Assembly (NCBI GenBank): GCA_047967505.1
Contig: CM106538.1
Strand: one strand, 5' to 3'
Length of the DNA: 64,000 bases
Origin: Dipteris shenzhenensis
Taxonomy: Eukaryota
Shown here: piece after piece, positions 27,901 to 55,200 of the stretch
Layout of the letters: every line of letters begins with the position of its first letter
Numbering within the stretch: the first letter of the stretch is position 1
Made by a program: the position numbers and the translations under genes
The notes under the pieces: generated by a model
Databases searched by the model: none
Seen by the model: only the letters and a program-made list of their open reading frames with translations
What the model was told of the DNA's origin: nothing

Positions 27901-30775
27901 TGTGTGGAAGCAATGAGCATAAATGTGAGTGCAAGGGTGTAGGAGCTGAAGTTGAACTGATGTTAATTGCAGCAAAATGTTACAACTGAAGTGAAGAGAC
28001 AACCCTATGAAGGCTAGACCTAAATAACTCATGTTACAATTTGTTTTCAAAGAGCTGATTAAAACGATGCAATAAGACTAGAACTAACTACAAGGCCATG
28101 CTAGTGGGCTAAACCTAACAATATTGGTGTGAATGTATTAGAGGATTAAAGCAACGGAAGAAGATTAATTTATGAACTTTGAGGAAGCTAGGTGGATAGA
28201 AGTCATTGATACATCCAAGAAACAATGAACTTGCACATTACTTAAAGTCATGTTGACAAAATCACTTACTCAAAGAAGACACTTAGGGAGAAATGAACTT
28301 CCACATCATAGAGATGTTAGTGAAAATTAGATGAGAAAAATTCCATATGAAGATAACCATTGCACTTATAAGAAAAATCAACAATTGCAAACACTCTTAT
28401 CGGTTCCATCAAAATTTGCCAAACGAGTACACTCCTACCAAGACATTATACAATTGGAGCCATGCAATCACAAGATATTCTACAATAAAGGGAAAACATA
28501 GTATGTCAAGGTATATTAATTTGATATGAAAGAACAAGCACACACATTGCTCAAAAGTGTGAAGTAAGATGGCAGCCTTGAACCATCACAAACAAATGGG
28601 GTGTCTACCTTTGTTTGAGTTGGTTAAGTTTTGCATGTTTCCTTGTGAGCTTATATAAGGGGGTTCCTATTCCTTATATAAGGAGCTTATATAAGGTGGT
28701 CCTATTCTGATCCATCAATGTGTTGATAAGCGCAGCAGAACTAGGATGGGTTAGGTGGGAACATAGCATCGTTTCATGTGTCTAAGAAGTGGTGACAAAG
28801 ACACATGTAATTATTCCATCCTTTTCAATCCCTAAGAAAGGTTTCGATTTCAAGGTCTTGAGGCCATGGTTCAAAATGGGAGAAAAATTGCCTATTCCCA
28901 TTCTAAACTCATGCAAGACCACCATGCTCTAGATGGAAATAATGATGACAAATAGATCCCCATTCTTTTCATACACATCCTTACTCTCATTCTATCTTCA
29001 CACCAAATTATGATCATAAAAAATTTAAGAAATGGTTAATTTATGATTTTACCTCTCTACAAGGTCTTGAATGATAGAAAGCATCCTGTTGATGGTTACC
29101 AATGTGTAGGGTGCAATGTGTGCATTGCTTGTCTACCAGTCTTAACATAAAGATCAAATACCTCATGTAATTTCTCTTCTTTTGGAGTTTAGAGATACTT
29201 TAGATTTTTTATTTGTCCTTAAGGAATGCTAAAATTTATATCTTGGAAAAGGTATCCTCCATTAAAATAATAAGTCCGTTGGAATACTCCAGGCTGTAAC
29301 ATGGATGAAAACGTATGTAGAATGAGCATCAAAGAACATAGACATAAACTTAAGGGAAAAGACAAGCTGTATTCTAGAAGGTAAAAGACGAGCTGTATTA
29401 TAGAAAGAACATAAATAGTAATTTGAAGGAAAGGACGAGTTATATTATAGAAGGGCAACCGATTACAAACAAATCTAAGAGTGTGTGCTTTGTGCTATGA
29501 ATACATTTTGCTCTCTCGTGAAATAGCACATAATACTCAAGGCTGTGCTTTCTCTTAGCCTCGATTCTTACTCTCATTTTAGCCTTTGCTAGTTGTTGTC
29601 ACCCCTTTTAAAGGATGTGAGTATCCTCTTCTTTGGAGCTAGCTGCCATTGCCCGTCGGTAGCTTCTTGATCTTCTTGCAAGAGGATTGTAAGATCATAA
29701 CCGTTGCTATAACTACCATGACGATCTTGGTCTACTTCCATGAGGATCTTGGCTTATCACCTCACCATTGAATTGCAATCTCTACCATGTCCAAGGTGAG
29801 TCCTCGTGTGACTATTGGGGGTTACCATATAAGACTGAGTCCTCGTGGACTAAACCTTGGAGGAGACTCGGGTAAGGGGTTGGCAAGGACAAGTTTTCTT
29901 TCAAAGCTCGGGGATTGGGATGACCACTTGTGGATGGTTTCTTGGGCACCACAATCCCTATTTTTCTTGGCTATTGTAGGGCCTAGCATTGAGGGCATGG
30001 GATGGCCATGGGGGGCGACTTGCGAGGTGCGTATTTGGTGTAAATGAGTTGCTAGGATCTTGGGGGCCACATGGGGCTAAGAGAGGGTGTGGGGGGAAAT
30101 TGGGTTGGGGTCCATGGAAGGCACCTTGGGCAACCAAGGATATATCACATAGACCTCTAAGAAGACCTACACTCTTGCTTCCATTATTCAATGACATGCA
30201 CCACGTTCAGGTGTATGATGCGCTACCCTTTCTTGCTTTTGGTGTCGAAAAAACTCCACCAATGGATCCTCAACATGTGGACAACGTGGAGATATTAATC
30301 TTGTTTCTAAGCCCTTTTATCATGTCGATCTCATTCCATAAGCCGTGGCCATTACGACATTCGATTGAATGAGATCATCATGAAAAGTGGATTACAAATA
30401 ACATTTACATTCCAAAAGTGAGTTGAAAATAACAAAACCTATATGACTTCAACAGTCAACAAATATTATTTTGGGTTTGTGCCTGCTCACCCATCTCCTC
30501 TACTTGACATAACATGAAATTTGCACATATGTACACAATATTAGTTATGAAAAGTTGATGTGATTATTCATTAGGGGAGAATTGGGGTCTCAAAAGGGCC
30601 TCATAAGGAATGGATTAGTCCTAATAAAAGGGCCAAGGTAGATCCCAAAAAGTCCTAACCCCCCCTCACCTAGGTGGGTTAAGCCCAAAAGTGACCCCAC
30701 CTCCTACACCTCTTACACAACTCTTACTCCTAGGTGGGAACCAAAAAATTCAAAATTCAAAATTCAAATTTTGGA

Positions 30776-31270
30776 TTCCCTCCCTCCTTCTCTCTCCTCC
30801 CTCCCTTCCTTCCCCTCCTCCCTCCCCCTCCCTCACTCCCCCTCCTCACTCCCTCCTCCCCCTCCCTCCTCCTTCCCCTCCCTCCCTCCCTCCTGCCCCT
30901 CCCCCCCCTTCCTCCCCCTCCCCCTCTTCACTGCCTCCTCCCCCTTCCTCCTCCTCCCCCTCCCTCCCTCCCTCCTCCACGCTTGCTCCTCCTACCCTCC
31001 CCCTCCCTCCCTCCTCCACGCCTGCTCCTCCTTCCCTCCCCCTCCCTCCTCCTCCATCATTGCTCCTCCTCCCCCCTCCCTTTGGCTCCTCCCTCCTCCC
31101 TCCCTCCTCCACCACGCCTACTCCTCCTCACCCTCCACACCTGCTGGTTTGCCCCCCTTCTCTCCTCTTCAACTACTGGTCCTCCCCCATCCCTCCTCCG
31201 CCTTGCCCTCCCTCTTCCTGCGTGTTGCTTCTTCAAGCCTACATCTCCACACCTTCTCCTTCTCTACACT
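30776..31270. repeat. Polypyrimidine (C/T) low-complexity tract upstream of the transposase
   Basis: Almost pure C/T. Its reverse complement is present at ~55755-56260. Confidence 0.9.
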
Positions 31271-31279
31271 CCTTTAGTC

Positions 31280-33936
31280 ATGGCACTATTCGAGGACATC
31301 TCCAACAAGTACCAGGTTCACTTAGAGTTGGAGGATGAATATGCAAGCACACGTAGTCTGGGATTGAGGGGAGCTTCTAAAATCCACAGTCTTTGTTCGC
31401 AAGGAAAGAAGCATCTCGACCTTTGGGTAGAATTATCCTTGTATCCTTTAGATCCTGCTAACCAAAAGAGCCCTCCTTTCCATACAATGCATGAGCTAGT
31501 TCAGTTTGTTGGAAATGGACATGCGGGGTTGCTTGGTTATTGCAATCGGTTAAACAATGCTCAGTCAATGGCTATGCAAGCAAGTGAGATGCATAGAGCC
31601 TAGGTAGAGATGCTAGCACATTTTGGAAATAGCACCACTGTTGCAATGCATAACTCTATGCAGGATCTTCAAAGGAAGAACTAGGATCTTAATGATAAAG
31701 CCAAAGCATTGGACTTGGAGTGAAATGCATTGGACTTGGAGCGACATAAATTAGAAGAGTCACTCTGTAAGCTAGTTGAGTCCAAAAAAGGCTTGGAAAG
31801 ATCTATATACAATTAAGTTTGATGAGCTGTAGACAAGGAACGAGAGAAGGCAGAAGAACGAGTGCAAAAGATGAAAGAAACACCTTTGGGATTGAAGGAG
31901 AGGAAAAGAAGGTACTTACATAACATGGATGCATTGGCACCCACTAGTGGTGATAGAAAGAGGAGAGTCTGGGCTACAAGGTTGGTTATCAAATGTTCCA
32001 ATGAAATTACACTCTTTTGTGCTGCATTGTTTGTGACTAAGTTTTTCTTGTGTTCTTCTTTAGGAACTCATGGAAGATGTGATGGGAAGAACAGATGGGG
32101 ATGATATTGACTGTTCATATGCTCTAGCTAGTTTATTGAAGTCAAGCGATGTCATTGGGATACTAAGGGACCCAAGACACAAGTGCCTACATGTGCAAGT
32201 TGCTGAAGAGGTGATGAAGGACCTCAAGGATATTTTGGATGCAAAGGAGAGGCTTGCAGCTTGTGATACTGCCGGTGTAAGTCGTGAAGCTTACACATCT
32301 GTTTTCAAAATTTTCAAGTCTGCTATTTTGGGAAAGTATAAGAAGTCTATAGCGCCCCTACCCACACCTTGGTCTGTGAGACATGCATGGCGAGAAACAA
32401 ACCAATGTGCAAGGGAAATGCTTGGAGGGTACCATTTTGTAAGGGGTACAATGACTTGGAAGAGTAAAAATAAATCTGGCTTGCACATTATAGCATTGCA
32501 CTTTACTTAGTTCATTTCCTATATCATGTTTATCCTAACGATTTCTCTCTTTTGTTGTACAGATTGCAGTGGAAAGTCATATTTGTCATCAAAATGGATG
32601 AAGCTCAATTGGTGAAAGAACACAAGTTAGAGAGAGTGAGCATTTGCATTATGAGAATAAAGCCTTAGCCTTTGTTCAAGGGAGCGAAGAAGTAGAGCAA
32701 GATTTCTCAGTGCAATCAGAGAAAGATATATGATGGCTTGCAGCATTTGAGACTCCGAAAGAGTGCCATGAGACATTGAAGTGGGTTCTAGATAGAACAG
32801 GAATCCCATCGGCGATCCGAAGACAAGAGGAAGGGAAAACATTGACAATCGATGGCCATGGAACATTTCGAGTTGAATGGCATCTTGCTGGTGATTTGGA
32901 AACCCTCAGGTGCTTGCATGGTTGTGATATAGGGAAAATGCCATGAACACATGCCTTTATTACATGTGTTCGCAACGTAAGCAAAAGGTTGGCTTACAAT
33001 GGGAGAATGGCATTCTATCTTGTAGCCAAATGCAAGCTCCCAATCGCAACAAGAAGGATCCAAAGTGGGATCCCATCTTGCCCATCCCACTTGCGAGAGT
33101 ACACATATGTACTTTACATGCAGAACTGCGCATACTTGATAAGTTGTTGTATTTGCATCTTGTTTATGCTTGGAATCTAATTCTGCCTATTGAACCACAA
33201 TTTCGACAAAGACAAACATATATTGTCTCAAAGCAGTTTGGGTTGGGAATACTGGAAAGCATTGTGTGAATGCATGACCAATAAGGCTTCTCATCCTCAA
33301 GTAGCTCAACTTTGAGAGCTAAAGTATGGACAAAGGTAGATGCGTTGATAAAATTTCTTCACCAGGTTCAAATCGATGAGATGTATTATGAAAGGTTCAG
33401 GATGGTTGTGAAAGAGTTTATGCAATTAATGTGTGAAAGCATGGGGGGAGTCGCACATTACGCATTACATGGTAATCTTGGCACCATCGTAATATTTAGC
33501 ACTTGCTTTATATAAACAGTTTTTGTTGCTGAAATGATTCTCATCATGTTTGCAGCATACTCTCTATGCACACGGACCATGGTTTGTACAAAATTGGGAC
33601 CCTTTGTCCATTTGGAATACACAAGGCATGGAGAAGTCGCACTATAGAGCCAAGGTAGCCTACTTTAAGAACTCAAGTCATGGTGGTGGTGTCACTCGCA
33701 GCAATGCATTGCATGAGATGTTTGACTGGTTTTTTAGATGTTTACTAGGAAGGACTTTGAAGTCTGAAAAGGCAAAGGCATCAGAACTTGCAAAAGTAGT
33801 TCGAATTGTATCAAAGAATAGAAGGCATAGTGCTTGGAAAGCATTCGTAGGGAGTCGAGGAGTCGCACGTTGGTTGCAAGCTAGAGTGAGAGAAGGGAGC
33901 AGATGGGTCCAACCACCAACAGAAGCTATTATGTAA
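31280..33936 (+). pseudogene. Four-exon DDE transposase with RAG1/Transib/Chapaev-like core (disrupted)
   Basis: Exons 31280-31980, 32064-~32484, 32563-33471, 33556-33936 with GT-AG introns (one donor deleted). Motifs IKMDE, WHLAGDL, CTLHAELR, ITHYM|HTLYAH, PLSIWNTQGMEKSH. Contains stops and deletions. Confidence 0.82.
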
Positions 33937-33951
33937 TTGTATACAAATATG

Positions 33952-34206
33952 CAGAAGACCACTAACAACCTGATCCTACGTGCTCCCTTCCAACGTGTGG
34001 TACGGGAGATAGCATAGGGATACAAGGACAATGTGCGATTCAACACAGGAGCTATGGGGGCGCTCCAGGAGATGGCGAAGCAAGTGACCATCACTCTGTT
34101 CGAGGATGCCAACTTGTGTGCTATCCATGCAAAACACATCATGGTCATGGACAAGGACATGGCTCTAGCAAAGCGGCTATGGAGTGACCCAAGCTTGAAG
34201 CCCTAG
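33952..34206 (+). pseudogene. Histone H3-like histone-fold domain (N-terminus deleted, one in-frame stop)
   Basis: [83 protein letters not shown] aligns without gaps to canonical H3 [22 protein letters not shown]...[28 protein letters not shown]. Confidence 0.93.
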
Positions 34207-34391
34207 ATTCTCTTGCAGCCCACTCTTAGGACTTAGACCACCCCCTACCCTTGAAGGCAGTATCTTGTATCTAAGGCCCAAGGGCCGATCTTTTTTAATA
34301 AAATATATCCACATTCTGTACACTATCACATTGTTGTGTATCCTCCATTTCTATGACTGAAGTAATTCATCATTTTAATGTAAGTTTTGAA

Positions 34392-34574
34392 TTCTATCAA
34401 ATCCTGAAGGAATTTCACCGTCGCGTAGAAGGGAAAAGTGTTCAGGACATCACCAGGACCTCAGAATGCCCAAATTTGCACCGTGGTGGGTTTCGGGCTT
34501 TCTAGGGTCTTGGCAACATCCTGGACACTTTTTCCTTCTGCACGACAGTGAAATTCCTTCAGGATTTGATAGAA
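34392..34574. repeat. ~183-bp imperfect palindrome/hairpin between convergent genes
   Basis: Arms TTCTATCAAATCCTGAAGGAATTTCAC...GTGAAATTCCTTCAGGATTTGATAGAA. Confidence 0.92.
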
Positions 34575-34785
34575 ATGAACTTTCGATACCCAGAATTGGT
34601 GAAAATGATATTAAATTGGCTAGAAATGTATTAAATTAACACAATTAAATGATGGAGAAAATATATCTTCAATGACTTAAACAATATACAATGGAATTCA
34701 TGACGAGCAACGATAACTTAAAATAAATATTAAAGACATGTAGTCATGCATCTAATAAAATTTATGTTTATATATACAAAAGGCT

Positions 34786-36086
34786 TCACAAGCTATCTTT
34801 CTTCTTGGCTAGTTTGAGTACATCAAGAATAGGGGTCTTTGAATCCCCTAGTGGATTCCTAGATATAAATCTAGCCACAATAGCACTAACATCCTCCTCT
34901 CCTACTGCCAAAGACATAGCTGTTGGCGTCAATGCCTTGCCATGAATGTTCAATCCAAAGGCATTGATAACAGCCAGCCGGTGTACCAAAATGACTTTGT
35001 CAGCATTCCGAGTAATGTTGGAGTATCTGATAGCGCGTGACAATGCCTTGCACTTTAGCGGCTCCGCTCGAGGAGAAAATTTGCTGTGAAAGACCACGAT
35101 ATGCTCTGTGACTTTGCCAAGGTAATGGGCCAAAGAATGATCTTGCCCAAATGCGCTGCAAACATTACCCGGTCGAGATGAGAATTCATCAAGCTCAAAC
35201 GCATCCTGCAACAATTCAACAAACATTAGAAGACCAACAAAACAATTTATACTAAAAGAACATCAAAATAAAAAATATTGTTCGAACTCTCCACTACAGC
35301 ATCGTCGGCTTCTATCCCTTCCTCATTTGTAATGTTGATGGAACCAGGTGCTGTGTGATGTTCCATTTGGGAGGTGGATGCTTTCTCCTAAACTGTGTTG
35401 GAGGTGGAAGCTTCTGCATGAGAGGGTTGTGCATCGTATATAGACATGTCTACATCCCTCATTGAAACCAACATCATCAAGAGAAAGTCTTCCATTGTCT
35501 GGTCTTCAGAACCTAAAACCCCAGGATCTTTGACACGTGTTAACATCGAACCCCGATAGGATTCCGAGTGCCTCATTCTATCGTAATCCAAAAAGAACCT
35601 CTATGTCATGGAGGAATAGTACTCTTCTCCATCGATGATGAGGGGGGACAAGGACCATAATTCTGATTTTGGGTCAGTGGTCTCCGATGCAGATTCTTGC
35701 TCTACTAGAGGCTCTCAAAGTAGGCTCAATGCTTGAGCTACTTCCATCTCCTCTATTGCATCATCAAGACTCTCTTTCATGTACATGTCTGAGACTAGTC
35801 TAGGGACGACTAGATCAACTATTCTACTAGAGGGGGTGCTAGATGACGAGGCTTCTTCCTCTAAATTTCCTTCTTGGAGAAGGAAGATGAATGTCATCTC
35901 CCATGAAAGAAATTTGGTGCTGGTATTTCTTATGATGCCCAATGTCTCCTTCCCCTTCTCTTGAGACGTGCTCTCCACGACCACGTCATCGTCTACTATG
36001 TCCTCAAGTAAAGGAGTTTGCCCTATATCAGTGTCAACTAAAATAGGCACAGGTAGGCAGCGTTTGCCCTTCTGACTTCCATTCAA
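34786..36086 (-). pseudogene. Transposon-borne ORF3 of unknown function (acidic N-terminal part, conserved C-terminal domain)
   Basis: Open last exon 34786-~35226 and a stop-interrupted acidic frame 35290-36086. Homologs at 49910-50510 (-) and 52250-52395 (+). Confidence 0.7.
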
Positions 36087-36158
36087 TGGAAGACATCAGC
36101 ACAAAATAGTCGGAACGCCCTCCAATCGGAGAAAGAAGGAGCACATGTGCCCAAGGTG

Positions 36159-36630
36159 AGAGCGAAGGGGAAGTCAACCTTCAGAGGCGAAGTCTAGAAT
36201 ATGGGCTATGAAAGAGAGAAAAATAGCAGACACAGGGGAGAAGATATACGCAGGAATGCTGTACTTCTTGGCTATTCCACCAATCCACCATAGCACACAG
36301 TCCTAGATGATATTAACACACCCTGCATCAGTTTTTGACTTGACCAGAAACTCCTCAAACATGTTCGCCATCTTTTCAATCGCATCTATTATACCTCTAA
36401 TGTGGTCTTCACTATTGCTACTGCTCTCCAAAGGTAATCCATCTAGCAATCCAACTAAGTGAATCGGGACGTCCTCTTGCATTTGAACACGAGAAATGTA
36501 ATGCTCAGTGCATACGAAGGTGATAGAGAGCCTAGCAAAGGCGAGTTTGTGGGACAAATCCAAGGCAGTGTTGATGTGGCCTTGAGCAGGGAATGGACAA
36601 ACGATCGATCATGTGGGCAAACTCACCCAT
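36159..36630 (-). pseudogene. UDP-glycosyltransferase (GT1) N-terminal half, inverted
   Basis: IVCPFPAQGHINTALDLSHKLA...ITFVCTE...DGLP...CVNII*DCVLWWIGGIAKKYSIPAYIF...LPLRS. Frameshift and stops. Confidence 0.9.
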
Positions 36631-38029
36631 GAGATCTGTCGATATCAATGAGCTCAAACACGGATGATAAGCAAATTTGTTGCGTTGAGTGGGGCTTCCC
36701 ATGTCGAGCTACAAATAGGGTGAAGACAAATTTTGTATTAATATTTTGTAAAGTTTAAAACTCTCCATTTTGTAATATTTGTCTCTTTGGAATCCAACTT
36801 TATAATAACATAATATTTATCGGTATTGGAAGTTGGAATCTTAAACGGAGTTCAATATGCATTTGTGTTGGACTTTGGCATCTAATCTATCCATGTGCTC
36901 CCCAACTCATCACTTTTACAATATTTGTTGGTATTGAAAATTCGAATCCAATTTTTTGAATAGAGTTCATATGCTAAAACCTTATATGTAAAAGTGAAAT
37001 TTGCACATGTTAGTGGTATAAGTGAATGTGCATGTGCGATTCTCATGCACCCTCAAATAATTTTTTGAATCGAGTTCACATGCTAAAACCTCATGCGTAC
37101 AAGTGAACATTGCACATGTTACTGGAACAAGTGAATGTGCACATGCAATTCTCACACATGCATTCAAGATCTATTTTTCAAACCTCTTATCTATTAATAT
37201 TGTATGATTAAAAGATACTCTTTTTCTATATAAATCTAAAAAAATTTCCAAAATGTTTTCTATGATCCTCCTTCATAAATATATAGGCACTTTGCTTTTA
37301 TGCGTCACGCTAAGCTACAAGTGAATGTGCATGTGAAACTCTTGAAACTCTCATACATTCTCAAAGAATATTGCAAGTGAAGCCCAACAAAGTGCAAGGT
37401 AGAGGGGCCTATTTTTGTGCATTTAATTTTTGAACTGGGCTAAGATCTAGAGCATGGGGGGGCTTATCAAGATTATTGGAGTGATGAGGGATGGAGGAGG
37501 ATGTAAGAGTTAAATTTATCTTTGGTAGAGCTATCTAAATGCATGAACCCGAGGTGCAACTAAAGATATATTTACCCTTGGTAGAGGGCAAACCTAGAAG
37601 AGGAAATTTGTGGGCATGCGCAAATACTCAACAAGTTTGAGTAGAATATGAAGATGTAGACCTTGTTTTGAGTTTTCTAAATTTACAAGCTTACTAGTTC
37701 TTGAATGAACAAAAAAGTTTGAAGGGAGTAGATCATCTCCTAGTGTAACATTCACATATTAGGGGGGCTTTACCCAATGTGACATCCAACCCTAGCAGAG
37801 GCAAAGAAACACCACATATAGAGGGGCAATCACGTGAAGAAGTGGTGGAGCTATATAGAGATAGAAACCTAGAGAGATACAAAAAGGTGACATTGCATGT
37901 GAATTGTAGTGAGGAAGTGTGCATTCATGCATGCCAAGGCTTTTTTAAGTTCAATAAAAGTCGAATTAATTCTTTAAAATTTATTTTGTAATGGGTCAAA
38001 AGGACCTAAAAACCTGCTAACTTCCACAT

Positions 38030-39371: not shown

Positions 39372-39405
39372 CGTTAGGGGAGAAATGGGGTCTCAAAATG
39401 GCCTC
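39372..39405 (+). repeat. Second terminal repeat of the RAG-like transposon (probably the right TIR, displaced by inversion)
   Basis: CGTTAGGGGAGAAATGGGGTCTCAAAATGGCCTC matches 30569-30602 at 31/34 positions, then diverges, unlike the three left ends, which stay similar further in. Confidence 0.7.
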
Positions 39406-39820
39406 CAATTAGTATTTCCTAATTTCAAGGGATTAGAGAGTGATTTGAGGTGTACTAATGAGAGTGCTAGAAGGTGTCGAGCAATGGTATGTTGAGATGG
39501 AGGGTGGGTGAGCCTTCAGAGAGCCCCCATTGGTTTCTCCTCTTGCACTAGGGACCACCCAAACCATCCCCCCCCTCTTAACCCATGTTTGACCCTCCTA
39601 CCAGGTGCACCTCCCCTACATGAGCCCAAAATTGCCTTCAATGGGATGGTAGGGCCCTTCTGGCAAATTTTCCTTCTCCCCTCCCTCTTTCTAGGGCCTC
39701 TGGCCCCCACTGTTCTAGTCCAGCTTGCCAAACCACTCCATCCAAACCGAATCCCATGCATTTTTCCTCTTCCTCCTCTTTCTCTGCTTCCTCCTGCTCT
39801 AGCCTACTTGCTGCAACTCC

Positions 39821-39823
39821 CCT

Positions 39824-39885
<62 letters not shown>

Positions 39886-40085
39886 GTGCCTCTGTTGGAG
39901 CTGCTCTATCCCTCTCCTTCTCCCTCTCCTGTGCCTCTGTTGCTGCTACTCTGTCCCTCTCCTTCTCCCTCTTTTGTTCCTCTATTGGAGCTGCTCTGTC
40001 CCTCTCCTTCTCCCTCTCCTGTGCCTCTATTGCTGCTGCTCTATCCCTCTCCTTCTCCCTCTTTTGCGCCTCTGTTGGAGCTGCA
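39821..40085. repeat. (CT)n microsatellite followed by a 45-bp minisatellite (~4.5 units)
   Basis: Units begin at 39881, 39926, 39971, 40016 and 40061. Confidence 0.9.
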
Positions 40086-40130
40086 TTGCCCTATGTAGGA
40101 GTCCCATTCTTGCTTGTGGCAACGATTACA

Positions 40131-41936
40131 TTTAAGCTTGTGGCGTGAAGCAATGTTAGAAAACCAACATAGATACCAAACATTTTATCGCATGGGATAT
40201 GATAGTTTTCATTTGTTGAAGTCTCAAATAGAGCCCTATTTACCATCGGTTGATACCGAATGCTTTGTTAGAAGTCCAATCTCTAGTGATCTAGCACTTG
40301 CATGTGTCTTATGGCGCTTTGCCCATGGACACTCTGCAAGGGTGATTGTTGAAATATTTGCCTTAGAATGCAGCACAATAAGAAAATATACGGAATCCAT
40401 AGTGAACATTCTATGTTCCAAACGAATGTTGGTGAAGCATGGCATTACCATTCCATCAGGTATTCACCTATGTAGAATTATATATGAGTTTGAAGCTATA
40501 ACATCTTTGCCCAACATGTGTGGTGCAATAGAGGGATCACACATTCGTTTACATTGGCTTCCTGATGAATATGATACACCCTCACACTACATGAATAGGC
40601 ATGGTTTTTCGAGTATATTGCTACACGGCATAGTTGACTCACGAAAAACCTTCTGGAGTCTTGTCTGCAATGCTCCTGGTGGTGTACATGATTCAACACA
40701 TTTCAAAGGGTCAACTGTGTATGATAAGTTGGTTAGAAAAGAGGTGTTGAAAGAGCCAATGCTCCAAATACAAGGTGAAATTATTCAACCTTACACTGTA
40801 GCAAGTTTCTGCCTATAAGGCAGAAGCATTTGTGCTAAAGGCTTTTAGGGCGAGAGGTGGGTTATACCATGAGGAGAAGGTATTGTTTAGCAAGGGTAGA
40901 GTTGTTATAGAGAATGCATTCGGCATGTTGAAAAATAGGTGGCGTATTCTTAGGGAGGTTAATGCCCACATATGCTTAGCACCTTACATCGCAGTAGCGT
41001 GTTGTGTGTTACATAACTTTGTAACCAAGCGTGGGGAGGTTGATCTAACAGATTGTGTAGACCCATATCCAAACGATAGGGAGGGTGCACGGGAGGTACA
41101 TGGAATGCGTATCGTTGCAGGAACTTGAATGCGAGGAGCTCTATTCAGAGATCTCATGTCTAGGGCTTCAGGGGTGGTAGTAGGCATCGATGTTGCGGTC
41201 GATAGTGAGGGGGAAGAAGAAGAGGATGTGGGTGATGATGTTATGACTGATGATGACTAAAGTTTATCGACTTGAAAATGTATGTATCATCGTCATATAG
41301 GTTCGAGTTGCGATGACGTCTTCGACTAATTGAGGTTAGTATTTGTCTGCTTTACATGTCGATTGCTTGTGTTGTTTGCTTGAGCATACATTGTTTGCAT
41401 TGACTTGAGGTATGTTTTCTTTTATAAAAAAAAGAAATTTGCATGGTCATGTGTGTGGTCCTTTGTTGTGTGTGTGGCCTACCTAAGCAGAGTGTTTGCA
41501 TGTTTGCATGTGGTTTGCATATCTGCTTGTTTGCTTGTTTGTAGCTTAGGTAGGCAAGGCCTCATGGTCGGGGTTCAATTCCCCTAAGGTCATAAGATTT
41601 GTTGTATAAGTGGGGCTATTCAAATTGTAAGTGTGTGTGTAGTATATACTATAAGGTTTTGTTTTCTTTCATGTAAATTATGGTTTTGTAAGATTTTGTA
41701 GATTATGGTCATACCCTATTGGATTTCTTAAGGGACATGTGCCCGTGAAACCGTTAGGATTTCCGGTGGGATCCTACACACATGTGCTTACCTGCCAGCA
41801 TACTATTGGATCATGTGCCCGAAAATCCGATAAGGTCCGGCAAACTTCCAGCAAACATGTGCCCTCAACTCCGATAGCATCAGATAGGCAACAGGTCTAA
41901 CGGAATGCAATCTCCGGCTTACATGTGCCCAACCTA
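40131..41936 (+). mobile_element. PIF/Harbinger-type DDE nuclease (disrupted) with right end and subterminal repeats
   Basis: FYRMGYDSF, CGAIEGSHI (first catalytic D to E), YMNRHGFSSI, PGGVHDS, RVVIENAFGMLKNRWRIL, ACCVLHNF. CATGTGC(C) repeats at 41735-41930. Confidence 0.88.
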
Positions 41937-42830
41937 TCTGCTACTGACGTTTCTGCTACATCTGATCTGTTTAATTTACCGGGCTTTCCGTCCCTTCATG
42001 CCTCGGAGCTTCCCGAGATGGCATGGGACCCAAATCCACTGTGCTCGTTCGAGTTTATGATCCGACTTGGATCGTCTCTCAGTGATGCAACAGGGGCGCT
42101 GATAAACACGATCTATGAGCTGGAGCAGGAAACCATCGAAAGTCTGAGACGCGGTGCAAAGGCGCTGGATATCAGAGCTATCGGGCCACTTCTGCCATTC
42201 GACACCAAAACCGAGTCCGACAACGAGAAAGTGAGCGAATCCGACCAAGAGTGCTTAAAGTGGCTGGACAAGCAACCGGACTCGTGAGTTCTGTACGTAG
42301 CATTCGGAACCGTTGCAAGCATGGGTGCGGAGCAAATGCGGGAGCTGGCGATGGAGCTAGAGGCGAGCCAGCATCGCTTCATGTGGGTGGTGAGGATACC
42401 GACGACGGATGATTTGGAGGGGGATGTGAAGAGGGTGGTACCGGAAGGATTTGAGGAGAGGACGGAGGGGAGGGGGGTGGTGGTGAGGGGGGGGGCGCCG
42501 CAGAGGAGGGTGCTGGTGCACAGGGCGACGGGGGGGTTCATGACGCATTGCGGGTGGATTTCGACGCTAGAGAGTGTGTGCGCGGGGTTGCCGAGACTGT
42601 GTTGGCGGATGTTGGGGGATCAGGGATTGAACAGCAAGCTGTTGGTGGAGGTGATGAGGGTGGGGAAGGCGATGATCGCTCTTGTGAGGAGTGAGGAGAT
42701 GGCCGGATCACCCCCACGGTACCCTCCTTCGGAACAACGCCCTCCACCTTCGAGACGTTGTCACACGAGGCTCCTCCCACTTCCAAAGCTTCCTCAATGA
42801 CATGCTCCTCCCCTCACTCCTAGTATTGTT
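41937..42830 (+). pseudogene. UDP-glycosyltransferase (GT1) C-terminal half with PSPG box
   Basis: NTIYELE, IGPLLP, CLKWLDKQPDS*VLYVAFGT, APQRRVLVHRATGGFMTHCGWISTLESVCAGLP...GDQ. Stop at 42285 and 3' deletions. Confidence 0.93.
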
Positions 42831-45877: not shown

Positions 45878-47120
45878 ATGGCACGAGTTAAACAAACTGC
45901 TAAACCAATTGGATGCTGTTTAGATGCCACCCACTCTTCTCCTCACAAGTCCATTGCTTGCAAACATACTTTGAGCCCCAGTGGCCAAGAAGGTGATGAA
46001 GGCTATTCTCATCGACAAAAGTCCCGGCAATGCGAGTCCCCACCATTTGACTCTCATAGGGGACTCCAGCACCACCTAGGATCTTAGCACGATTAGGGAT
46101 CCCAGCACGATGAGGGGCCCTCTCAATCCTTCCACACAACCAACCGTGGAAGTAGAGAGGTCTCCCAAGAGGTTTAAAATAGTCCAAAAAATCCTGATCG
46201 ACTGCAAACCACTGTCAGTCCCCTCCCTCCTCCGTGGGGTCTTGGCATGGAGCATTTAGACTAACAAGGGGAGCAACAAGGGAGAAGCCACTAGAATATG
46301 GAGAAGCTAAATGGGGCACAACAGAAGGAAGTATTTGGTGGGCTCACATGTATTATGAACTTTGGCCCCAATCCTCCAACCAAGCAGAACGCACAGAAGA
46401 GCGTCCTCAACCCTCTATGCCTTGAGATTGTCACATGTGAGGAGCCCCTGGTCGAGTTGAGCAAGAGCCTCATCTTGACTCATAGCCTTAGCCAAAGTGA
46501 AGGAAGACAATGACAAAGAAGGCCCCAAGGTGTAAGAGGCCACCTAGACACACCCATCAGACACAAGAAGAGGACTCTAAAGACGAGGTTGCAAGGAAGG
46601 AGAGACGGAAGAAGTTTGAAGTAGACAAGCAGCCATGGAGCCATGTCCAAAGGCTGGTGCAGAACCCTCCAAAGATTAAGAGGTGCAAGAAGTCAGGAGT
46701 GAAGGCACTTCAAGAGATCCCCAAGTTCCAGACCATTGTGGACAATTTCATTCCGTGTGTGCCCTTCCAACGTAATATCAACAATACAAGGATGATGTTG
46801 GTTTCACTTTAGGCACTATGGGAGCAATTCAAGAGGAAATGGAGCAGATGACAGCATTGGAACTTAGGGAGAGAGGAGAGCTTCATCATGGAGGTGAGTG
46901 AGAACACATGAAATATTCAAATGGGTGTTCTATTCATTGTGAAGTCCCTCTTTTATAGAAATGGAGAGAGGGTGTCCTAAATCAATGGCACCTCTTCTAC
47001 ATCAATGGAGGTAGCTCCTAAATCATAGGAACTCCACAATCATAGGCAACACCCCATGTGGGGGCCTTTGCATTACATCATCACCTGTGTCATGGTCTAT
47101 GGCACTAAGTGTGCCTCTTC

Positions 47121-47167
<47 letters not shown>

Positions 47168-49341
47168 CCATATGACTACTAGTGGATGCACACATTCACC
47201 TAGCAAGCCCTTGATCACATATATCCCAACATACCTCCCCTCAAGGGTTTTCCTCTTGCTATGTCAAGGATTCATCTAGTCACATAGTTTCTTATGCCAT
47301 CTCATGGTGGTAAACGATAAATCTATGGCTAGGATCTCATGCTAGCAAAGGTGCCCAAGGGTCAAGGTTTACAAAAATGGGATAGACCCCCCCCCAAATG
47401 GTTATCTCTCTTGCATGTACAAGGACTAATCATAAGCCTTTGTGTGGACCTAATTTCTCATGTTTGCAAGAGGTACCATGGGAGCAAACACACATCACAT
47501 GGAAAATATCATATGGTGACCAGAGGTGATTTACAAAATACAAAACACATAACATTCTTTTTGGAGTACTATTCCAGGCAGAGAACCTCAAAAATTGACC
47601 AAGTGATGATAAATACAATTCAAAAGACAAAGTGCTCAAAAGGCAAAGTCTTTACCTTCTACCAGAAAGTTTGATTCCTCATTTGTTGATGGAGTCTTTC
47701 CTTCGGCAATATTTTCTTTGTTGTTGATGCAGCTCTTCTTCACATGAAATGCTTCATTCTCTTGGGATTCATTCCTCTCCTTTTTAGGTAATACTCCATA
47801 GTATGATTGGGTACTCCACAGAAGGCACATATCTTTTTCTTGGTGTTCACCTTGATATATTCACCATTACAAGGCTTTACTCTCATTCTAGGCTTCTTTT
47901 GGAATGCTTTCCTCTGAGATACATAATCAATGTTAGAGGAACAATATGATGAAGGCATATTGGGAAGGTCTAGTCCCTTATAAAGAAGTCTCCTTCTCCA
48001 CAAGTATAATTGTTTGGAGAGATAGTTAGATACCCCAAACTCTTACATAAAGGAAATACAGTGTCTATCGCTTTAAAAAATAGCATTCGAACATATTCAG
48101 ATCATAAATGCATCATGAGCATTTACCAAAACTGTCAAACTATAGGAGTTAAGTGCTCCAAAGGTAAGACTAAAAAATGCCTCAGATCACTTCCAATGGT
48201 CAAACATCCAAAAGACCAAAGATAACTAAGATAATAATGAAACTTTCTAGAACTTAACCATTTTCAATGGTTCACCTTAGAAGCATATATCACTGTTACC
48301 CCCAAATTGAGTAGTTTGAAATTGGAGAGTGCACTTGAAGTTGAAGAGAAAAGATTTGAGAGGGCTTTCAAAGGCAAATGGAAGCTCTTATTGAGGACTA
48401 CTTCCAACAAAGAGGATTGCCAAAACAGCGTGCAACATTGCTCATGACAGTAGCACCTTCTCTGACTAGTATTTTTCTTATTTCTCCTTATTCTAGCAAG
48501 CATTTTAGCTCAAATTTCATGAGCAGCAAGCTCATAGTGTTGCCCATCCATGGCTAAGAGGAATTGGTGAAATATCACATTAGTAGGTGGAATTGATTGA
48601 AAGTTTGGTGAGCAGAGATCATATCGGCACAGGCTGTAGAGAGCATCTCTCTCTAACTGCTTGGTGTCAAAGGTGCACCCAAAGTAGAGGAAACTTCAGC
48701 TCAGAGTGCTCTGGGAATGGTCGCTTAATGGAGGAGAACGGAGCTAAGCAAAATCTGGAGAGAAAGAGGGCAGAAATGAAGAAGAAGATGGAGGGTGGAG
48801 AAGAAGATGATGAGGTGTCATATTGAAGCTACAATGGGCTAGGGACTCAAGGAGGCTCTGATACCAAATGTTGGAACTTGGGTAGAGAGGAGAGCTTCAT
48901 CATGGATGTAGTGAGAACACATGAGATATTCAAATGGATGTTCTATTCATTGTGAGAGGGAAGTCCCTCTTTTATAGAAACGGAGAGAGGGTGTCCTAAA
49001 TCAATGGCACCTCTCCTACATCAATGGAGGTAGCTCCTAAATCATAGGAACTCCACAATCATAAGCACCACCCCATGTGGGGGCCTTTGCATTACATCAT
49101 CACTTGTGTCATGGTCTATGGCACTAAGTGTGCCTCTTCTACACACACACACACAACCATATGACTCCTAGTGGATGCACACATGCACCTAGCAAGCCCT
49201 TGATCACATATATCCCAACAAACAGTAGGTATTTTTGAAGATGAAAACTTATACGCGATCCACACCAAAGGAGTAACAGTGATGGACAAGGATCTTGCAC
49301 TCGCCAAGCGCATCCGCTCTGATCCCTTCCTTAGGGCATAG
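45878..49341 (+). pseudogene. Histone H3-like gene with long N-terminal tail, split by an LTR element
   Basis: MARVKQTAK at 45878; KKSGVKALQEIPKFQTIVDNFIPCVPFQR at ~46690; QQYKDDVGFTLGTMGAIQEEMEQMT | insertion | [39 protein letters not shown] (49222-49341). Confidence 0.9.
46855..49220 (-). mobile_element. Small non-autonomous LTR retrotransposon (LTRs 46855-47231 and 48869-49220)
   Basis: Very similar LTRs; PBS at 48855-48866; polypurine tract at 47232-47244; TSD GACAG/AACAG; only gag-like remnants (CAFCGVPNH). Confidence 0.9.
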
Positions 49342-49503: not shown

Positions 49504-49682
49504 TGTGGCGTAGAAGGCAAAAGTGCTTAGCATCGTGCGGAAATCCTAGAAATGCAAAAACTTGCCATGGTGCATATGGATCTTGTTTGAGTTGGTCAAA
49601 CAAGCTCCATACACCCCATGGCAAGTTTTTTCATTTTTGGGCTTCCCGTGCGATGCTGAGCACTTTTGCCTTCTACACCACA
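49504..49682. repeat. ~179-bp hairpin between the H3-like gene and ORF3 (copy 2)
   Basis: Arms TGTGGCGTAGAAGGCAAAAGTGCT...CTTGTTTGA-GTTGG-TCAAACAAG...AGCACTTTTGCCTTCTACACCACA. Confidence 0.92.
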
Positions 49683-49909
49683 GTGAGATTCTTACTAGAT
49701 TGCTAAAAAATGACCATTATAGTGCAAAGAGTTATCTAATAGCATGCTTTTGAATAGAATAATGAATGAAAATATTAATACCAACAAAAATTAAAGCTAC
49801 ACAATACAATGACAACATAAAATAAATGTTGTCAAAGAATGTCAAATGGAACACTATAGAAAAAGTATATCTGTATTCCTATAAAATAAAAGTTATGTAC
49901 AATAAGGCT

Positions 49910-50510
49910 TCACAGCCTGTGTTTCTTCTCTCTTGCATCTAAAACATTGAGAATATTGGGCTTTGAATTCCCAAATAGGTGCCTAGGTCTAAACCTAGTC
50001 GATAGAGCACCAAGGCGCTTGTCTTGCTGCCAGGGGCATGGTCGCTGCCATCAATGCCATAGCTTGAAAATTCATTCCAAAAGCATTGAGGGTAGCAATG
50101 CAATTCACCAAAATGACCTTGTCAGCATTCTGATTGATGTTAGCATGACCAATCACCCATGACAAGGCCTTGCACTTCAAGAGGTCCTCTGTGCCTCGTG
50201 GCAAAATCTTTTTGTGAATAACCACAAAGCGCCCTTCTGCTTGGCCGAGGTAATGTGCAAGTGAGTGATCTCGAGCGAAGATACCGTGAACAAGGCATGT
50301 TGAGATAAGAAGAGGTCGACCTCAAATGCCTTCTGCAATAATCCAACATTATATTAAAAGGCCAATAAAGCAAAATTATACCAAGAGAGAATAATTTCAA
50401 AACTCATAGTTTCTTACTAATATGGAGTCGTCAGGATTGATCCCTTCCTCTTTGTCTTTAGAGCCAAATGTAAACTTCATGGCCATGCCCACATCCTTTG
50501 CAATCTTATC
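49910..50510 (-). pseudogene. ORF3 homolog (copy 2)
   Basis: LLQKAFEVD...DHSLAHYLG...LKCKALS...NADKVILV...NAFGMN. Stop codon in the same AAGGCTTCACA context as copy 1. Confidence 0.8.
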
Positions 50511-50511
50511 C

Positions 50512-52245
50512 TTGTATGATTACAATCTTCTTTTAGAGATCTCAATAACGGAAGACAAATGGAAAAATGGTGAGAGGGGGAAAGCACACAAGAGAGAGTG
50601 GACACTCGTTTGGTGGGTGTAGAACACCCTAATCTTCTATGTTATCCATATATATATGTATTTGAGTATTGTACATAGCCGGGGTTAAGGCACAGTGGCC
50701 TTTAACCCCCACAACCTCCCACTTAAAGGACAATGAGAGGCCTATGTGCCTTTAAAGGAGAACAACCAATGGACATGTACTATCCAATGCCCATCAATTG
50801 ATGCACGACAATACTCAAACCATTGACTAGGTAGACTCTTCGTCATCATATCTACAGGGTTATCGTCTGTATGAACATTGAAAAGCTCTATGTGCTTGTC
50901 CTCAAGTACCTCCCTGATGAAATGGTACCTGACCTCAGTGTGTTTGGTCTTTCCATGAAAGACCGAATTTTGTGCTAGCTGAATTTAGCACTCATGGAAT
51001 CACTATGCAATGTTGGTACACCTGTATAAATCCGCAAATCTCCTAGTAGCCAATCAAGCCATATAGCCTCCTTGGAACCCTCTATAGGTGCAACATACTC
51101 AGCCTCTGTGTGTGGTAGACAAAGCAATGCACGTCTATGCATGAGACATCCACGACACTGCACCACCTGCAAAGGTGAACATGTCATAACCAGAAGTGGA
51201 TCTCTTGCTAACCACATGCCTGCATAGTCTGAATCTTGGTACCAAAGTGCATGCATCTCTCCTCTGCTTGTGCGCTCGTGATCCAAGTTGAGAGCTCCAC
51301 CAGTAGCGTTGCCAATCGTCTTCACCAAGATCCGCAATACCAACTTTACGATGCTATCAATATGTGAGAGAACCTTCTTGATGCTTAGTGACAAGAGCTT
51401 TACGGCTTTTGGATGCAGCCTAATATGACGTTGCTGGAGTAGAAGAGCTTGCAAAAATCAGCTTGAAGAAAGCTATCTGTTTGCTCGAGATATGATGGAA
51501 ATAGTGCGGAAATAAGAGGGGTAGAAGAGGACTAGAGGCTTGATAAGTTGTTGAAGGCTTGATAACTTATCAAATAAGCTCTCCTTCTCTTATCAATGAA
51601 AAGAAATTATCCCTTGATAAGCGTTGTTGAACCTGCTCATCTGCTCCACCATAGCTCAAACAAACCGAAGAATGCATTTGGAGGGTTTGAATACTCTATA
51701 GCCACCTTTGGAGACCAATTCGTTGCCGAATTTTTTTGGGCTAAATCTCCTTCTTATCAAGTGGCCATTTGTGACAGGAAGAGTAACTTGTAGCGAATTT
51801 CTTCCAAGGGCCGTCTTTACTCGTTTGAAGAGGCTTGTAGGGAAGCTTTGAAAGAAAGGCTTATGGACTAGATCAAGGGATAGAGGAGAATGGCGAAGCA
51901 AGAGGAGAGAGGCGGCCCGTCACATGTAGCAATTCGTGACAGAGACGAAGGTCTCTGTTTTTTTTTTCAAGAGAAAGAGAACCTTAGTCAAAGAGATAAG
52001 GCCCTCCAAAAATTTGACTCCCAAATACCACTCTCAAAGTACTATTTGAAGCTCCCTTTTCAAAATCTGAGTCGATGGCTCCTGTAGCTCTCTTCCCAAC
52101 AATTTTATTGAGAAGTACCTCTCAATCTCAAGTTCTTGTGGAGCATAGCAAGAGCTCTGATACCACTAAAATGTGAATAGCAATTCTAACACATACAATA
52201 GCACCAACAATTGAATATACACGGAAGCTCATGAAAAGACAAGAG
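50512..52245 (-). mobile_element. Deleted Copia element (LTR ~50512-50712, RNase H remnant, PBS ~52155)
   Basis: YQDSDYAG, TEAEYVA..EGSKEAIWL, VFHGKTKHTEVRYHFIRE, NPVDMMTK; GCTCTGATACCA. Confidence 0.8.
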
Positions 52246-52249
52246 GATT

Positions 52250-55200
52250 GAGCCTACTTTAAGAGCCCCTAGTAGAGCAAGAATCTGCATCGGAGACCGA
52301 TGACCCAGACTCAGAATTATGGTCCTTGTCCCCCCTCATTATTGATGGAGAAGAGTACGTATTCCTCCATGACATAGAGATTCTTTTTGGACTATGAGAG
52401 CATATTGTGGTCAAAATAAGCAATATATTTATTTCATATTTGTATACAATTACACCATAGCTTCTATTGGTGGTTGGACCCATCTGCTCCCTTCTCTCAC
52501 TCTAGCTTGCAATCAATGTGCGACTCCTCGACTCCCTATGGATGCTTTCCAAGCACTATGCCTTCTATTTTTTGATACCATTTGAACTGCTTTTGCAAGT
52601 TTTGATGCCTTTGCTTTTTCAGACTTTAAAGTCCTTCCTAGTAAACATCTAAAAAACCAGTCAAACATCTCATGCAATGCATTGCTGCAAGTGACACCCC
52701 ACCATGCCTTGAGTTCTTGAAGTAGGCTTCCTTGGCTCTATAATGCGACTTCTCCATGCCTTGTGTATTCCAAATGGACAAAGGACCCCAATTTTGTACA
52801 AACCATGGTATGTGTGCATAGAGAATATGCTGCAAACATGATGAGAATCATTTCAGCAGCAAAAACTGTTTATAAAGCAAGTGCTAAATATTACGATGGT
52901 GCCAATATTACCATGTAATGCATAATGTGTGACTCCCCCCATGCTTTCACCATTAATTGCATAAACTCTTTCACAGCCATCCTGAACCTTTCATAATACA
53001 TCTCATCGATTTGAACCTAGTGAAGCATTCAACATTGTCTATGTTCTTTTTGGTATCGTAGCCGTGGTAAACTTGTGAGGGTGGCTTTCTTTGTTCTCAT
53101 AGATTCTCTGAAGTTTGTGATATTGTACAACCTCCATGACTACATCAGTGGGCAAACAAAACAACCTCCTCTATGATTTGGCTCTTTTTGGCATGCATCC
53201 ATTGTTTTGAAATGAGGCTAGAGAATCCACTCTTAGTTGATAACAATTATAAATGCATTGGTGGCTTAGCATAATGATTCAATGAAAGATATCTTGATGA
53301 ATATAGATTGTGAATTGAGTAATTCAAATAAAAAATGGAGTGTTAGAGACAATTAGAAAAAATGATCCGAGATGTAGAGTCTATGTAGCTTTGTGCACCT
53401 AACTTGAGAGAGTACACATATGTACTTTACACACAGAACTGCGCGTACTTAATAAGAAGTTGTATTTGCATCTTGTTTATGCTTGGAATTTAATTCTGTA
53501 AGAAGTATCCGCATGGTGCATTACAGAAGCTGAGAAGTTGCTGTCAGAGATGGGATTCCATGGAGGACATGTCAAACTTAAGGAGGATAAGAAAATGTCT
53601 GGGGCAACAGAGAATCTTCCTACAAAAGTGTCCATGGGTGGAGGGAAGGCAAGGAGATTCCTATCGAACCACAATCTCGACAAAGATAAACATACATTAT
53701 CTCAAAGTAGTTTGGGTTGGGAATACTGGAAAGCATTGTGTGAATGCACGACCAATAAGGCTTCTCATCCTCAAGTAGCAACTTTGAGAGCTAAAGTTGG
53801 ACAAAGGTAGATGCATTGATAAGTGGGATGGGTAAGATGGGATCCCACTTTGGATCCTTCTTATCGAGATTGGGAGCTTGCATTTGACTACAAGATAAAA
53901 TGCCATTCTCCCATTGTAAGTCACCCTTTTGCTTACACTGCGAATACATGCAATAAAGGCATGTGTTCATTGCATTTGCCCCTGTATCACAAGCATGCAA
54001 GCACTTGAGGGTTTTCAAATCACCAACAAGATGCCATTCAACTTGAAAGGTTCCATGGCCATCGACTGTCAATGTTTGCCCTTCCTCTTGTCTTCGGATC
54101 GTCAATGGGATTCCTGTTCTATCTAGAACCCACTTCAATGTCTCATGGCACTCTTTCAGAGTCTCAAATGCTGCAAGCCACCATATATCTTTCTCTGATT
54201 GCACTGAGAAATCTTGCTCTACTTCTTCATTCCCTTGAACAAAGACTAAGGCTTTATTCATAATGCAAATGCTGACTCTCTCTAACTTGTGTTCTTTCAC
54301 CAATTATGCTTCATCCATTTTGATGACAAATATGAGCTTTCCATTACAATCTGTACAACAAAAGAGAGAAACCGTTAGGATAAACATGATATAGGAAATG
54401 AACTAAGTAAAGTGCAATGCTATAATGGATTTCCTCTTACCATCCTCTCTCATGCCATAGAATTTGACCATTGCTTGTTGCAGTTTCTCAACATCTAAGT
54501 AGACAATCTAAGTAGACATTGTTGAAAGCATTCATCTCAAAGGTTTGCAAGCCAGATTTCTTTTTACTCTTCCAAGTCATTGTGCCCCTTACGCAATGGG
54601 ACCCTCCAAGTATTTCTCTTGCACATTGGTTTGTTTATTACCGTGCACATCTCACAGACTAAGGTATGGATAGGGGCACTATAGGCTTCTTATACTTTCC
54701 TAAAATTGCAGACTTGAAAATGTTGAAAATAGATGTGTAAGCTTCACGACTTGCACTAACAATATCACAAGCTGCAAGCATCTCCTTTGCATCCATGATA
54801 TCCTTAAAGTCCATACCTCTTCAGCAACTTGCACACGTAGGCGCTTATGTCTTGGGTCCCTTAGTATCCTCATGACATCGCTTGACTTCAATAAACTAGC
54901 TAGAGCATATGAACAGTCAATATCATCCCCGTCCGTTCTTCCCATTACATCTTCCATGAAGTTCCTAAAGAAGAACACAATAAAAACTTAGTCACAAACA
55001 ATGTAGCATAAAAGAGGTTTATCTCATTAGAACATTTGATAACCAACCTTGTAGCTCGGACTCTTCTCTTTCTAGCACCACCAGTGGGTGCCAATGCATC
55101 CATGTTATGTAAGTACCTTCTTTTCCTCTCCTTCAATTTCAAAGGTGTTTCTTTGATCTTTTGCACTCGTTCTTCTGCCCTCTCTCGTTCCTTCTCTACG

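Follow-up and report, generated by a model that had tools for sequence, protein, structure and literature searches.

ORF3, a candidate accessory gene of a plant transposon, encodes a conserved basic domain of an unannotated protein family

The locus considered here raises the question of what a small gene without recognizable relatives is doing inside a transposon, transcribed towards a large transposase-like gene. The DNA analysed (the window) is 64 kb of plant-like nuclear DNA, and its self-comparison reveals three copies (A, B and C) of one element. Copy A runs on the plus strand from 30569 to ~36088. Copy C, also on the plus strand (44849 to ~50390), is 67–75% identical to it, and copy B lies on the minus strand, from 56468 down to 52238, and is 88–94% identical to copy A. 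The order within copy A is a proline-rich low-complexity stretch, the transposase-like gene, an H3-like pseudogene, a hairpin and finally, on the opposite strand, ORF3. The gene order of copy C is the same, although most of the transposase gene has been lost and the copy carries a 2.4-kb insertion with direct repeats at its flanks. These repeats (46857–47234 and 48871–49223) are ~380 nt each, 87% identical and 2 kb apart, contain a CA microsatellite, and resemble the termini of a small repeat element that has inserted there. Copy B lacks the stretch matching 33951–35575 of copy A, corresponding to the H3-like gene and the ORF3 domain; by self-comparison it retains a remnant of the region upstream of that domain (52238–52403, plus strand). 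All three copies are inactive relics. The first ~600 nt of the element (30700–31280; 55750–56330) are CT-rich and of low complexity, with proline, serine and leucine runs in several frames, and this stretch precedes the transposase-like coding region on its upstream side.

The terminal coding exon of ORF3 comprises 139 codons on the minus strand (34789–35205) with a stop at 34786–34788, and is delineated by its open reading frame, its homologues, tblastn and dN/dS. Its product is a conserved basic domain, containing the motifs DHSLAHYLG, LKCKALS, NADKVILV and NAFG, followed by a K-rich tail. Alignment to this exon locates its counterpart in copy C, a pseudogene on the minus strand at 49894–50388, and ORF3 has the same position and orientation in the two copies. 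The original prediction had described a C-terminal domain of ~145 aa common to both, and such a domain does recur, with ~139 aa, at 34789–35205 and 49894–50388; the minus-strand reading frame 34786–35262 is 67% identical to 49894–50388 at the nucleotide level. The four sequence blocks picked out at that stage are all kept, DHSLAHYLG, LKCKALS and NADKVILV being identical in both copies and NAFGLN being paired with NAFGMN. The six nucleotide differences within DHSLAHYLG are, as had been stated, all synonymous. The exon of copy C has suffered -1 and -2 frameshifts and an in-frame insertion of 6 nt, and its stop is in the same place. Matches to the family within the window are confined to the exons of copies A and C.

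Constraint at the codon level, for which a dN/dS comparison had been proposed, is found between copies A and C. Differences fall at 56/157, 35/158 and 66/159 of codon positions 1, 2 and 3 respectively (chi-square p = 0.00087), so that position 2 is the least changed. The NG86 dN/dS of the exon is 0.36 (bootstrap 0.20–0.57; 137 codons) with dS = 1.01, and falls to 0.19 in a 63-codon core; in the two off-frames of the same alignment the ratio is 0.61 and 1.39. The last exon of the transposase compared between the same copies gives dN/dS = 0.30 and dS = 0.99. The similarity of both values indicates that the two genes diverged together under similar constraint. Copies A and B give a nearly neutral dN/dS of 0.74, as expected of recent dead copies. 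The non-coding 3′ flank has 54% identity between copies and is too diverged to align as a dN/dS control. Twelve indels are listed in related contigs. All four of those in the ORF3 exon are multiples of 3 (3, 6, 6 and 6 nt, representing ~2–3 independent events), compared with one of the eight outside it. The 16 single-letter exon differences listed (from 40 of 203 rows, and mostly in the poorly conserved tail) are distributed 5/6/5 over codon positions 1/2/3, without bias. Judged from its sequence, ORF3 is a real protein-coding gene.

The relatives of the domain are few. With HMMER, 1.84 billion representatives were searched exhaustively, giving 20 matches at E ≤ 0.001, of which 18 are real. 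The other two (P0008 and P0009) owe their matches to short repeated stretches (9 and 7, respectively), and were rejected as unrelated repeat proteins. The best homologue of the exon has E = 1.1e-31, and the 18 homologues are co-linear, 26–55% identical and share the C-terminus to within a few residues. A profile search brought the family to 30 members in all at E ≤ 0.001, every one of 16 family proteins matches the ORF3 exon by tblastn, and a word-based search for longer homologues found none. Three clusters have 10, 13 and 5 members, each on separate short contigs, indicating that the family is multi-copy. Names were found in two of the ten clusters looked up, both being hypothetical proteins of the fern Adiantum nelumboides.

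The family alignment comprises the window exon and 39 of 69 proteins, with fragments, chimeras and most near-identical cluster members omitted. Eleven columns are nearly invariant across the 40 sequences (G20, L25, H27, Y28, H40, L55, S56, I72, L73, F83 and L92, in the numbering of the window exon), and the window exon has the consensus residue at all eleven. The domain is basic in 34 of the 39 members, with a median pI of 9.7, and many members end in K/R-rich tails. The N-terminal parts are acidic (pI 4.2–4.5) in three long homologues and in the window. As far as the sequences searched extend, the ORF3 family is small, unnamed and unannotated, and so far found mainly in fern-like sequences.

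Adiantum nelumboides provides the named comparison. MCO5569081.1 (252 aa), MCO5613072.1 (418 aa) and two more gene models belong to the same domain family. In single-sequence searches against ORF3 the first two give E = 9.8e-07 and 7.3e-08 respectively, and P0013, a protein of the same species, matches the family profile with E = 4e-47. In a charge pattern that matches ORF3, these proteins have an acidic N-terminal part, then the basic domain, then a K/R-rich tail. Unlike ORF3 they carry the acidic part and the domain in one continuous reading frame, and their identity to the window exon is 26–29%. Fusion to retrotransposon pieces, or the presence of repeated partial copies, marks two of the four models. 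One is joined to a copia gag (Pfam Retrotran_gag_2), and in two of them repeated partial copies adjoin what we take to be a retrotransposon-like stretch.

How the domain of ORF3 is joined to its upstream sequence was examined using the contigs of a public run, X1 (its type only guessed to be RNA, with 7% of words matched), compared with 30500–36700. These contigs are 85–99% identical to that stretch; their coverage begins at 30569 and stops with the bin that ends at 36088. In one contig 86 nt between 35203 and 35290 are skipped, the exact position being free within three letters. With the joint placed two letters on, 35292 is joined to 35205 and both frames are in register, so that the product reads ...EADDAVV/DAFELDEF... 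(the slash marking the joint), linking the acidic upstream frame to that of the domain. The skipped segment is a probable intron of 86 nt on the minus strand (35206–35291), T-rich and with AG at 35207–35206; in copy A it begins with GA, not GT. Since X1 is only guessed to be RNA, the skip could instead be a deletion in a DNA copy. Another X1 contig has a skip of 84 nt at 33470–33555 in the transposase-like gene; this one is GT..AG, and fits spliced RNA.

Upstream of the probable intron the frame listing and the joint define an acidic part of an exon on the minus strand (35292–35366; MEHHTAPGSINITNEEGIEADDAVV), which starts at the first ATG following the 35388–35390 stop. The shortest reading of copy A adds 25 codons, beginning with the ATG at 35366, to the 139-codon exon. 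In frame with this, 35367–36088 (minus strand) is by its frames and composition an acidic, Ser/Thr-rich and putatively coding region. From 36086 to 35250 the frame contains 3 stops in 279 codons (at 35388–35390, about 35603 and 35715–35717), whereas stops are abundant in both remaining frames. Copy A lacks 1 nt at 35618/35619 that is present in copy B and in an X1 contig. The upstream part had been described as acidic and serine-rich. As regards composition this stands (51 D+E and 51 S+T among the 262 residues of 35292–36086, pI 4.19), but the reading is broken by those three in-frame stops and has no ATG near 36086. The splice-like joint links no more than the last ~25 codons to the domain. 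When the upstream region is compared with the N-termini of the long homologues, 31–100 of 300 shuffles score as well, so the resemblance is not significant.

ORF3 had been called unrecognized, and it has remained so: no known host gene family matches it, and Pfam, PDB profile and Foldseek searches give nothing. None of 19 family members contains a Pfam family, and a PDB profile search with the family alignment produced chance matches only (E about 0.5). AlphaFold2 with 19 and 40 sequences gave pLDDT values of 52 and 49, which is no usable fold; the domain is modelled, with low confidence, as mixed alpha/beta. A Foldseek search with the better model, a check proposed earlier, returned 0 matches at E ≤ 0.001, with a best probability of 0.23. 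A PCI domain (PF01399), a weak lead from a protein atlas (score 0.85, 144 shared features), was discarded, as 0/19 members match it in Pfam at E up to 1. Comparison of the profiles of ORF3 and the transposase family gives a probability of 0.7%.

The gene towards which ORF3 is transcribed is located by tblastn and homologues at 31280–33936 on the plus strand. It has several exons and encodes a transposase-like protein of ~900 aa; residues 2–890 of an 898-aa homologue (P0074) align across 31307–33912 by tblastn. Homologues of this protein (P0072–P0082) form clusters of up to 62 sequences, and include a hypothetical protein of the charophyte alga Klebsormidium nitens. From the multi-copy clusters and the algal homologue, the transposase-like family is far more widespread than that of ORF3. 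None of 11 homologues has a Pfam match, their profile has no PDB match, and pieces of the window's own transposase gave nothing in Pfam or the PDB either. In this family the acidic residues that are conserved, the CxxC pair and the two histidines preceding the last glutamate stand in an order reminiscent of the transposases of RAG1/Transib and CACTA. A literature search found nothing linking Transib with Klebsormidium, and another on Transib in ferns found nothing apparently about such an element. PMC9435367 reports 39 Transib-like proteins in plants, and these may already include the ~900-aa family.

ORF3 was originally placed tail-to-tail with the transposase. The two genes are indeed convergent, but an H3-like pseudogene and a hairpin of 190 nt intervene, so that the actual tail-to-tail neighbour of ORF3 is the H3-like gene. 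This histone-fold pseudogene lies at 33952–34206 on the plus strand (Pfam Histone, E = 2.9e-11 for 34018–34206); in copy A it has an in-frame stop and its N-terminal half is missing. The H3-like gene of copy C (46510–46857) is frameshifted, its basic N-terminal tail is divergent, and an insertion interrupts it at 46857. A search of the literature under four phrases found no report of a transposon-encoded histone. Between the H3-like gene and ORF3, at 34387–34579, is the long inverted repeat that can form the hairpin (RNA fold −124.7 kcal/mol, z = −16.6). The hairpin is almost perfect, with arms of ~88 nt. It is also present in copy C (49504–49682), where the arms are homologous to those of copy A and the loop is longer. 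Possible explanations are a terminator used by both genes, a small-RNA source or a foldback insertion of old date.

The left end of the element is sharp. It begins with CATTAGGGGAGAATTGGGG (30569–30668, plus strand), as defined by the common start of copies A, B (56468, minus strand) and C (44849), and the contig alignments have loose ends at 30566/30569. About 35 nt of this end also heads a Harbinger-type element at 39372. That element (39372–40818) consists of the ~35-nt terminus resembling that of the ORF3-bearing element, then a CT-rich stretch, then a Harbinger-type DDE ORF. The DDE ORF (40153–40818) has a weak match to DDE_Tnp_4 (E = 0.0042, below the Pfam cut-off), and is presumably a Harbinger/PIF transposase from its motifs. 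The large proteins of the two elements that share the terminus are unrelated. No inverted repeat matching the left end occurs in the whole window except the left end of the inverted copy B, CAC-type inverted ends are absent from the element, and no terminal inverted repeat or target-site duplication was found to define its right end. A candidate subterminal motif, CAAAAGGGCC, is not clearly enriched (12 occurrences compared with 4.9 expected, a number reached by 1/100 shuffles), and most of its matches are homologous copies.

Two pieces of glycosyltransferase lie on opposite strands in the surrounding DNA, at 36150–36620 (minus) and 42018–42800 (plus). Pfam supports the second only, through a UDP-glycosyltransferase fragment at 42321–42797 (UDPGT, E = 3.3e-10); the scan gave no support for reading the piece at 36150–36620 in this way. 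The latter contains stops and adjoins the right end of copy A, and the sequence just past 36088 resembles what we take, from its motif, to be the N-terminal part of a glycosyltransferase pseudogene.

ORF3 had been said to sit where RAG2L sits in ProtoRAG. As to position this holds in part, the orientation being convergent and the partner putatively RAG1/Transib-like, but the likeness does not extend to the protein. The absence of kelch and PHD motifs, noted at the outset, is confirmed by scanning the two pieces of ORF3, and 19 members of the family, against Pfam at E up to 1, and the family alignment has no conserved Cys/His zinc pattern. A RAG2-like assignment was therefore rejected, the protein having neither kelch nor PHD and a conserved domain of only ~135 aa. 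The resemblance to RAG2L is that of a second gene inside the element, convergent with a large transposase gene and having an acidic stretch beside a small C-terminal domain; the differences are that the ~135-aa domain is basic, and that an H3-like gene lies between ORF3 and the transposase gene. PMC10629977 describes RAGL elements as having convergent RAG1L and RAG2L genes, and Transib elements as encoding nothing that resembles RAG2.

ORF3 bears comparison in kind with two other proteins. The Myb-like ORF1 of PIF/Harbinger and TnpA of CACTA are element-encoded, non-catalytic and probably nuclear proteins found beside a transposase. ORF3 would similarly be a nuclear non-catalytic second protein, but is unrelated to either in sequence, with no Myb/SANT-like or TnpA match in Pfam.

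The reading that we favour, at somewhat better than even chances, is that ORF3 is a genuine gene of the transposon, encoding a nuclear accessory factor that binds nucleic acid and a protein partner. Membership of the element, as originally proposed, is supported by the same place and orientation in two copies (both in this one window) separated by a dS of ~1, with a constraint equal to that on the transposase exon. The last exon provides a ~135-aa basic domain of a narrowly distributed, unannotated family, preceded by an acidic and probably disordered N-terminal region and followed by a short tail rich in lysine and arginine. ORF3 is convergent with the large transposase-like gene and the H3-like gene, and purifying selection has acted on it for as long as on the transposase. 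The basic domain may bind nucleic acid, either DNA or RNA of the element, and the acidic arm may contact a protein partner, which could be the transposase or the histone; the protein would be nuclear and a cofactor of the element. An accessory factor of transposition is favoured by the combination of an acidic arm, a basic domain and a tail resembling a nuclear signal, together with upkeep alongside the transposase-like gene. Given that there is no predicted fold, and nothing similar in Pfam, PDB or Foldseek, the mechanism is drawn only from the pattern of charge and from analogy.

The alternative that fares best, though unlikely, is that ORF3 is a dedicated partner of the H3-like histone of the element, either a chaperone or depositor or an anti-silencing factor whose acidic arm holds the histone. 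In the two copies where the H3-like gene is present, ORF3 is its immediate tail-to-tail neighbour, with the conserved hairpin between them, and the upstream region of ORF3 is strongly acidic. The long acidic, Ser-rich region and the nearby histone-fold gene recall acidic histone chaperones, but none of the defining domains of these proteins is present, and no histone-chaperone domain or solved relative was found using Pfam, PDB profile and Foldseek searches. Moreover the conserved part of the protein is the basic domain, a feature no less suggestive of nucleic-acid binding, while the sequence of the acidic region is not significantly conserved. The H3-like genes of the window are broken and no H4 gene was seen in it. 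Prediction of a complex between the ORF3 domain and a 62-aa piece of the H3-like protein (score 0.00, with the alignment unused and the fold of the partner uncertain) weighs neither for nor against this pairing.

Plant DNA transposons often capture fragments of host genes, and ORF3 might have been acquired in this manner by transduplication and carried passively; the adjoining H3-like gene (Pfam Histone) is clearly host-derived in the long run. The original prediction had itself raised passive capture, and the searches point the other way, making this origin a rather poor prospect. No known host gene family matches ORF3, either among the 1.84 billion representatives or in a collection of 5.8 billion sequences; the named homologues belong to gene models that are rich in repeats and carry fused stretches of copia or gypsy; and a constraint equal to that on the transposase over a dS of ~1 would not be expected of a passive passenger.

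It is improbable that the element carries a chromatin module of its own. Here the divergent H3-like histone would be placed on the DNA of the element by ORF3 as a dedicated escort with acidic and basic parts, the two being a co-expressed convergent pair with a shared hairpin that would mark or shield the chromatin of the transposon. A Transib/CACTA-like element would then have gained a histone–chaperone pair where RAG-like transposons gained RAG2.

That ORF3 is an independent gene or repeat merely beside the element is very improbable. The right end is without a detectable terminal inverted repeat or target-site duplication, and copy B has no ORF3 domain, both of which would be consistent with such an arrangement. 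However, the order transposase tail, H3-like gene, hairpin and ORF3 is found in copies A and C despite ~30% divergence, a simple deletion in copy B has left the upstream segment of ORF3 adjoining the transposase side, and the related contigs span 30569–36088 and stop there. The last alternative, that the conserved stretch is a non-coding cis-element or RNA, could draw on the defects in both window copies and the lack of a predicted fold, but is close to refuted: the differences are spread unevenly over codon positions, dN/dS is low specifically in the coding frame, the indels keep the frame, and homologues that share the C-terminus are recognizable as proteins down to 26% identity.

The second genes of DNA transposons are a source of innovations in the conflict of host and parasite, among them RAG2, the Myb-like proteins of Harbinger and anti-silencing factors. 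ORF3 defines a protein family without annotation, solved relative or predictable fold, which selection has maintained in a plant lineage together with an H3-like gene and a gene for a large transposase-like protein, and which gives the annotators of fern genomes a family that can be named. If the large protein is Transib/RAG1-like, the element would represent an independent gain of a convergent partner gene, bearing on the origin of the RAG1–RAG2 pair. If it is not, ORF3 would still be a clean and testable case of a lineage-restricted accessory protein of a transposon.
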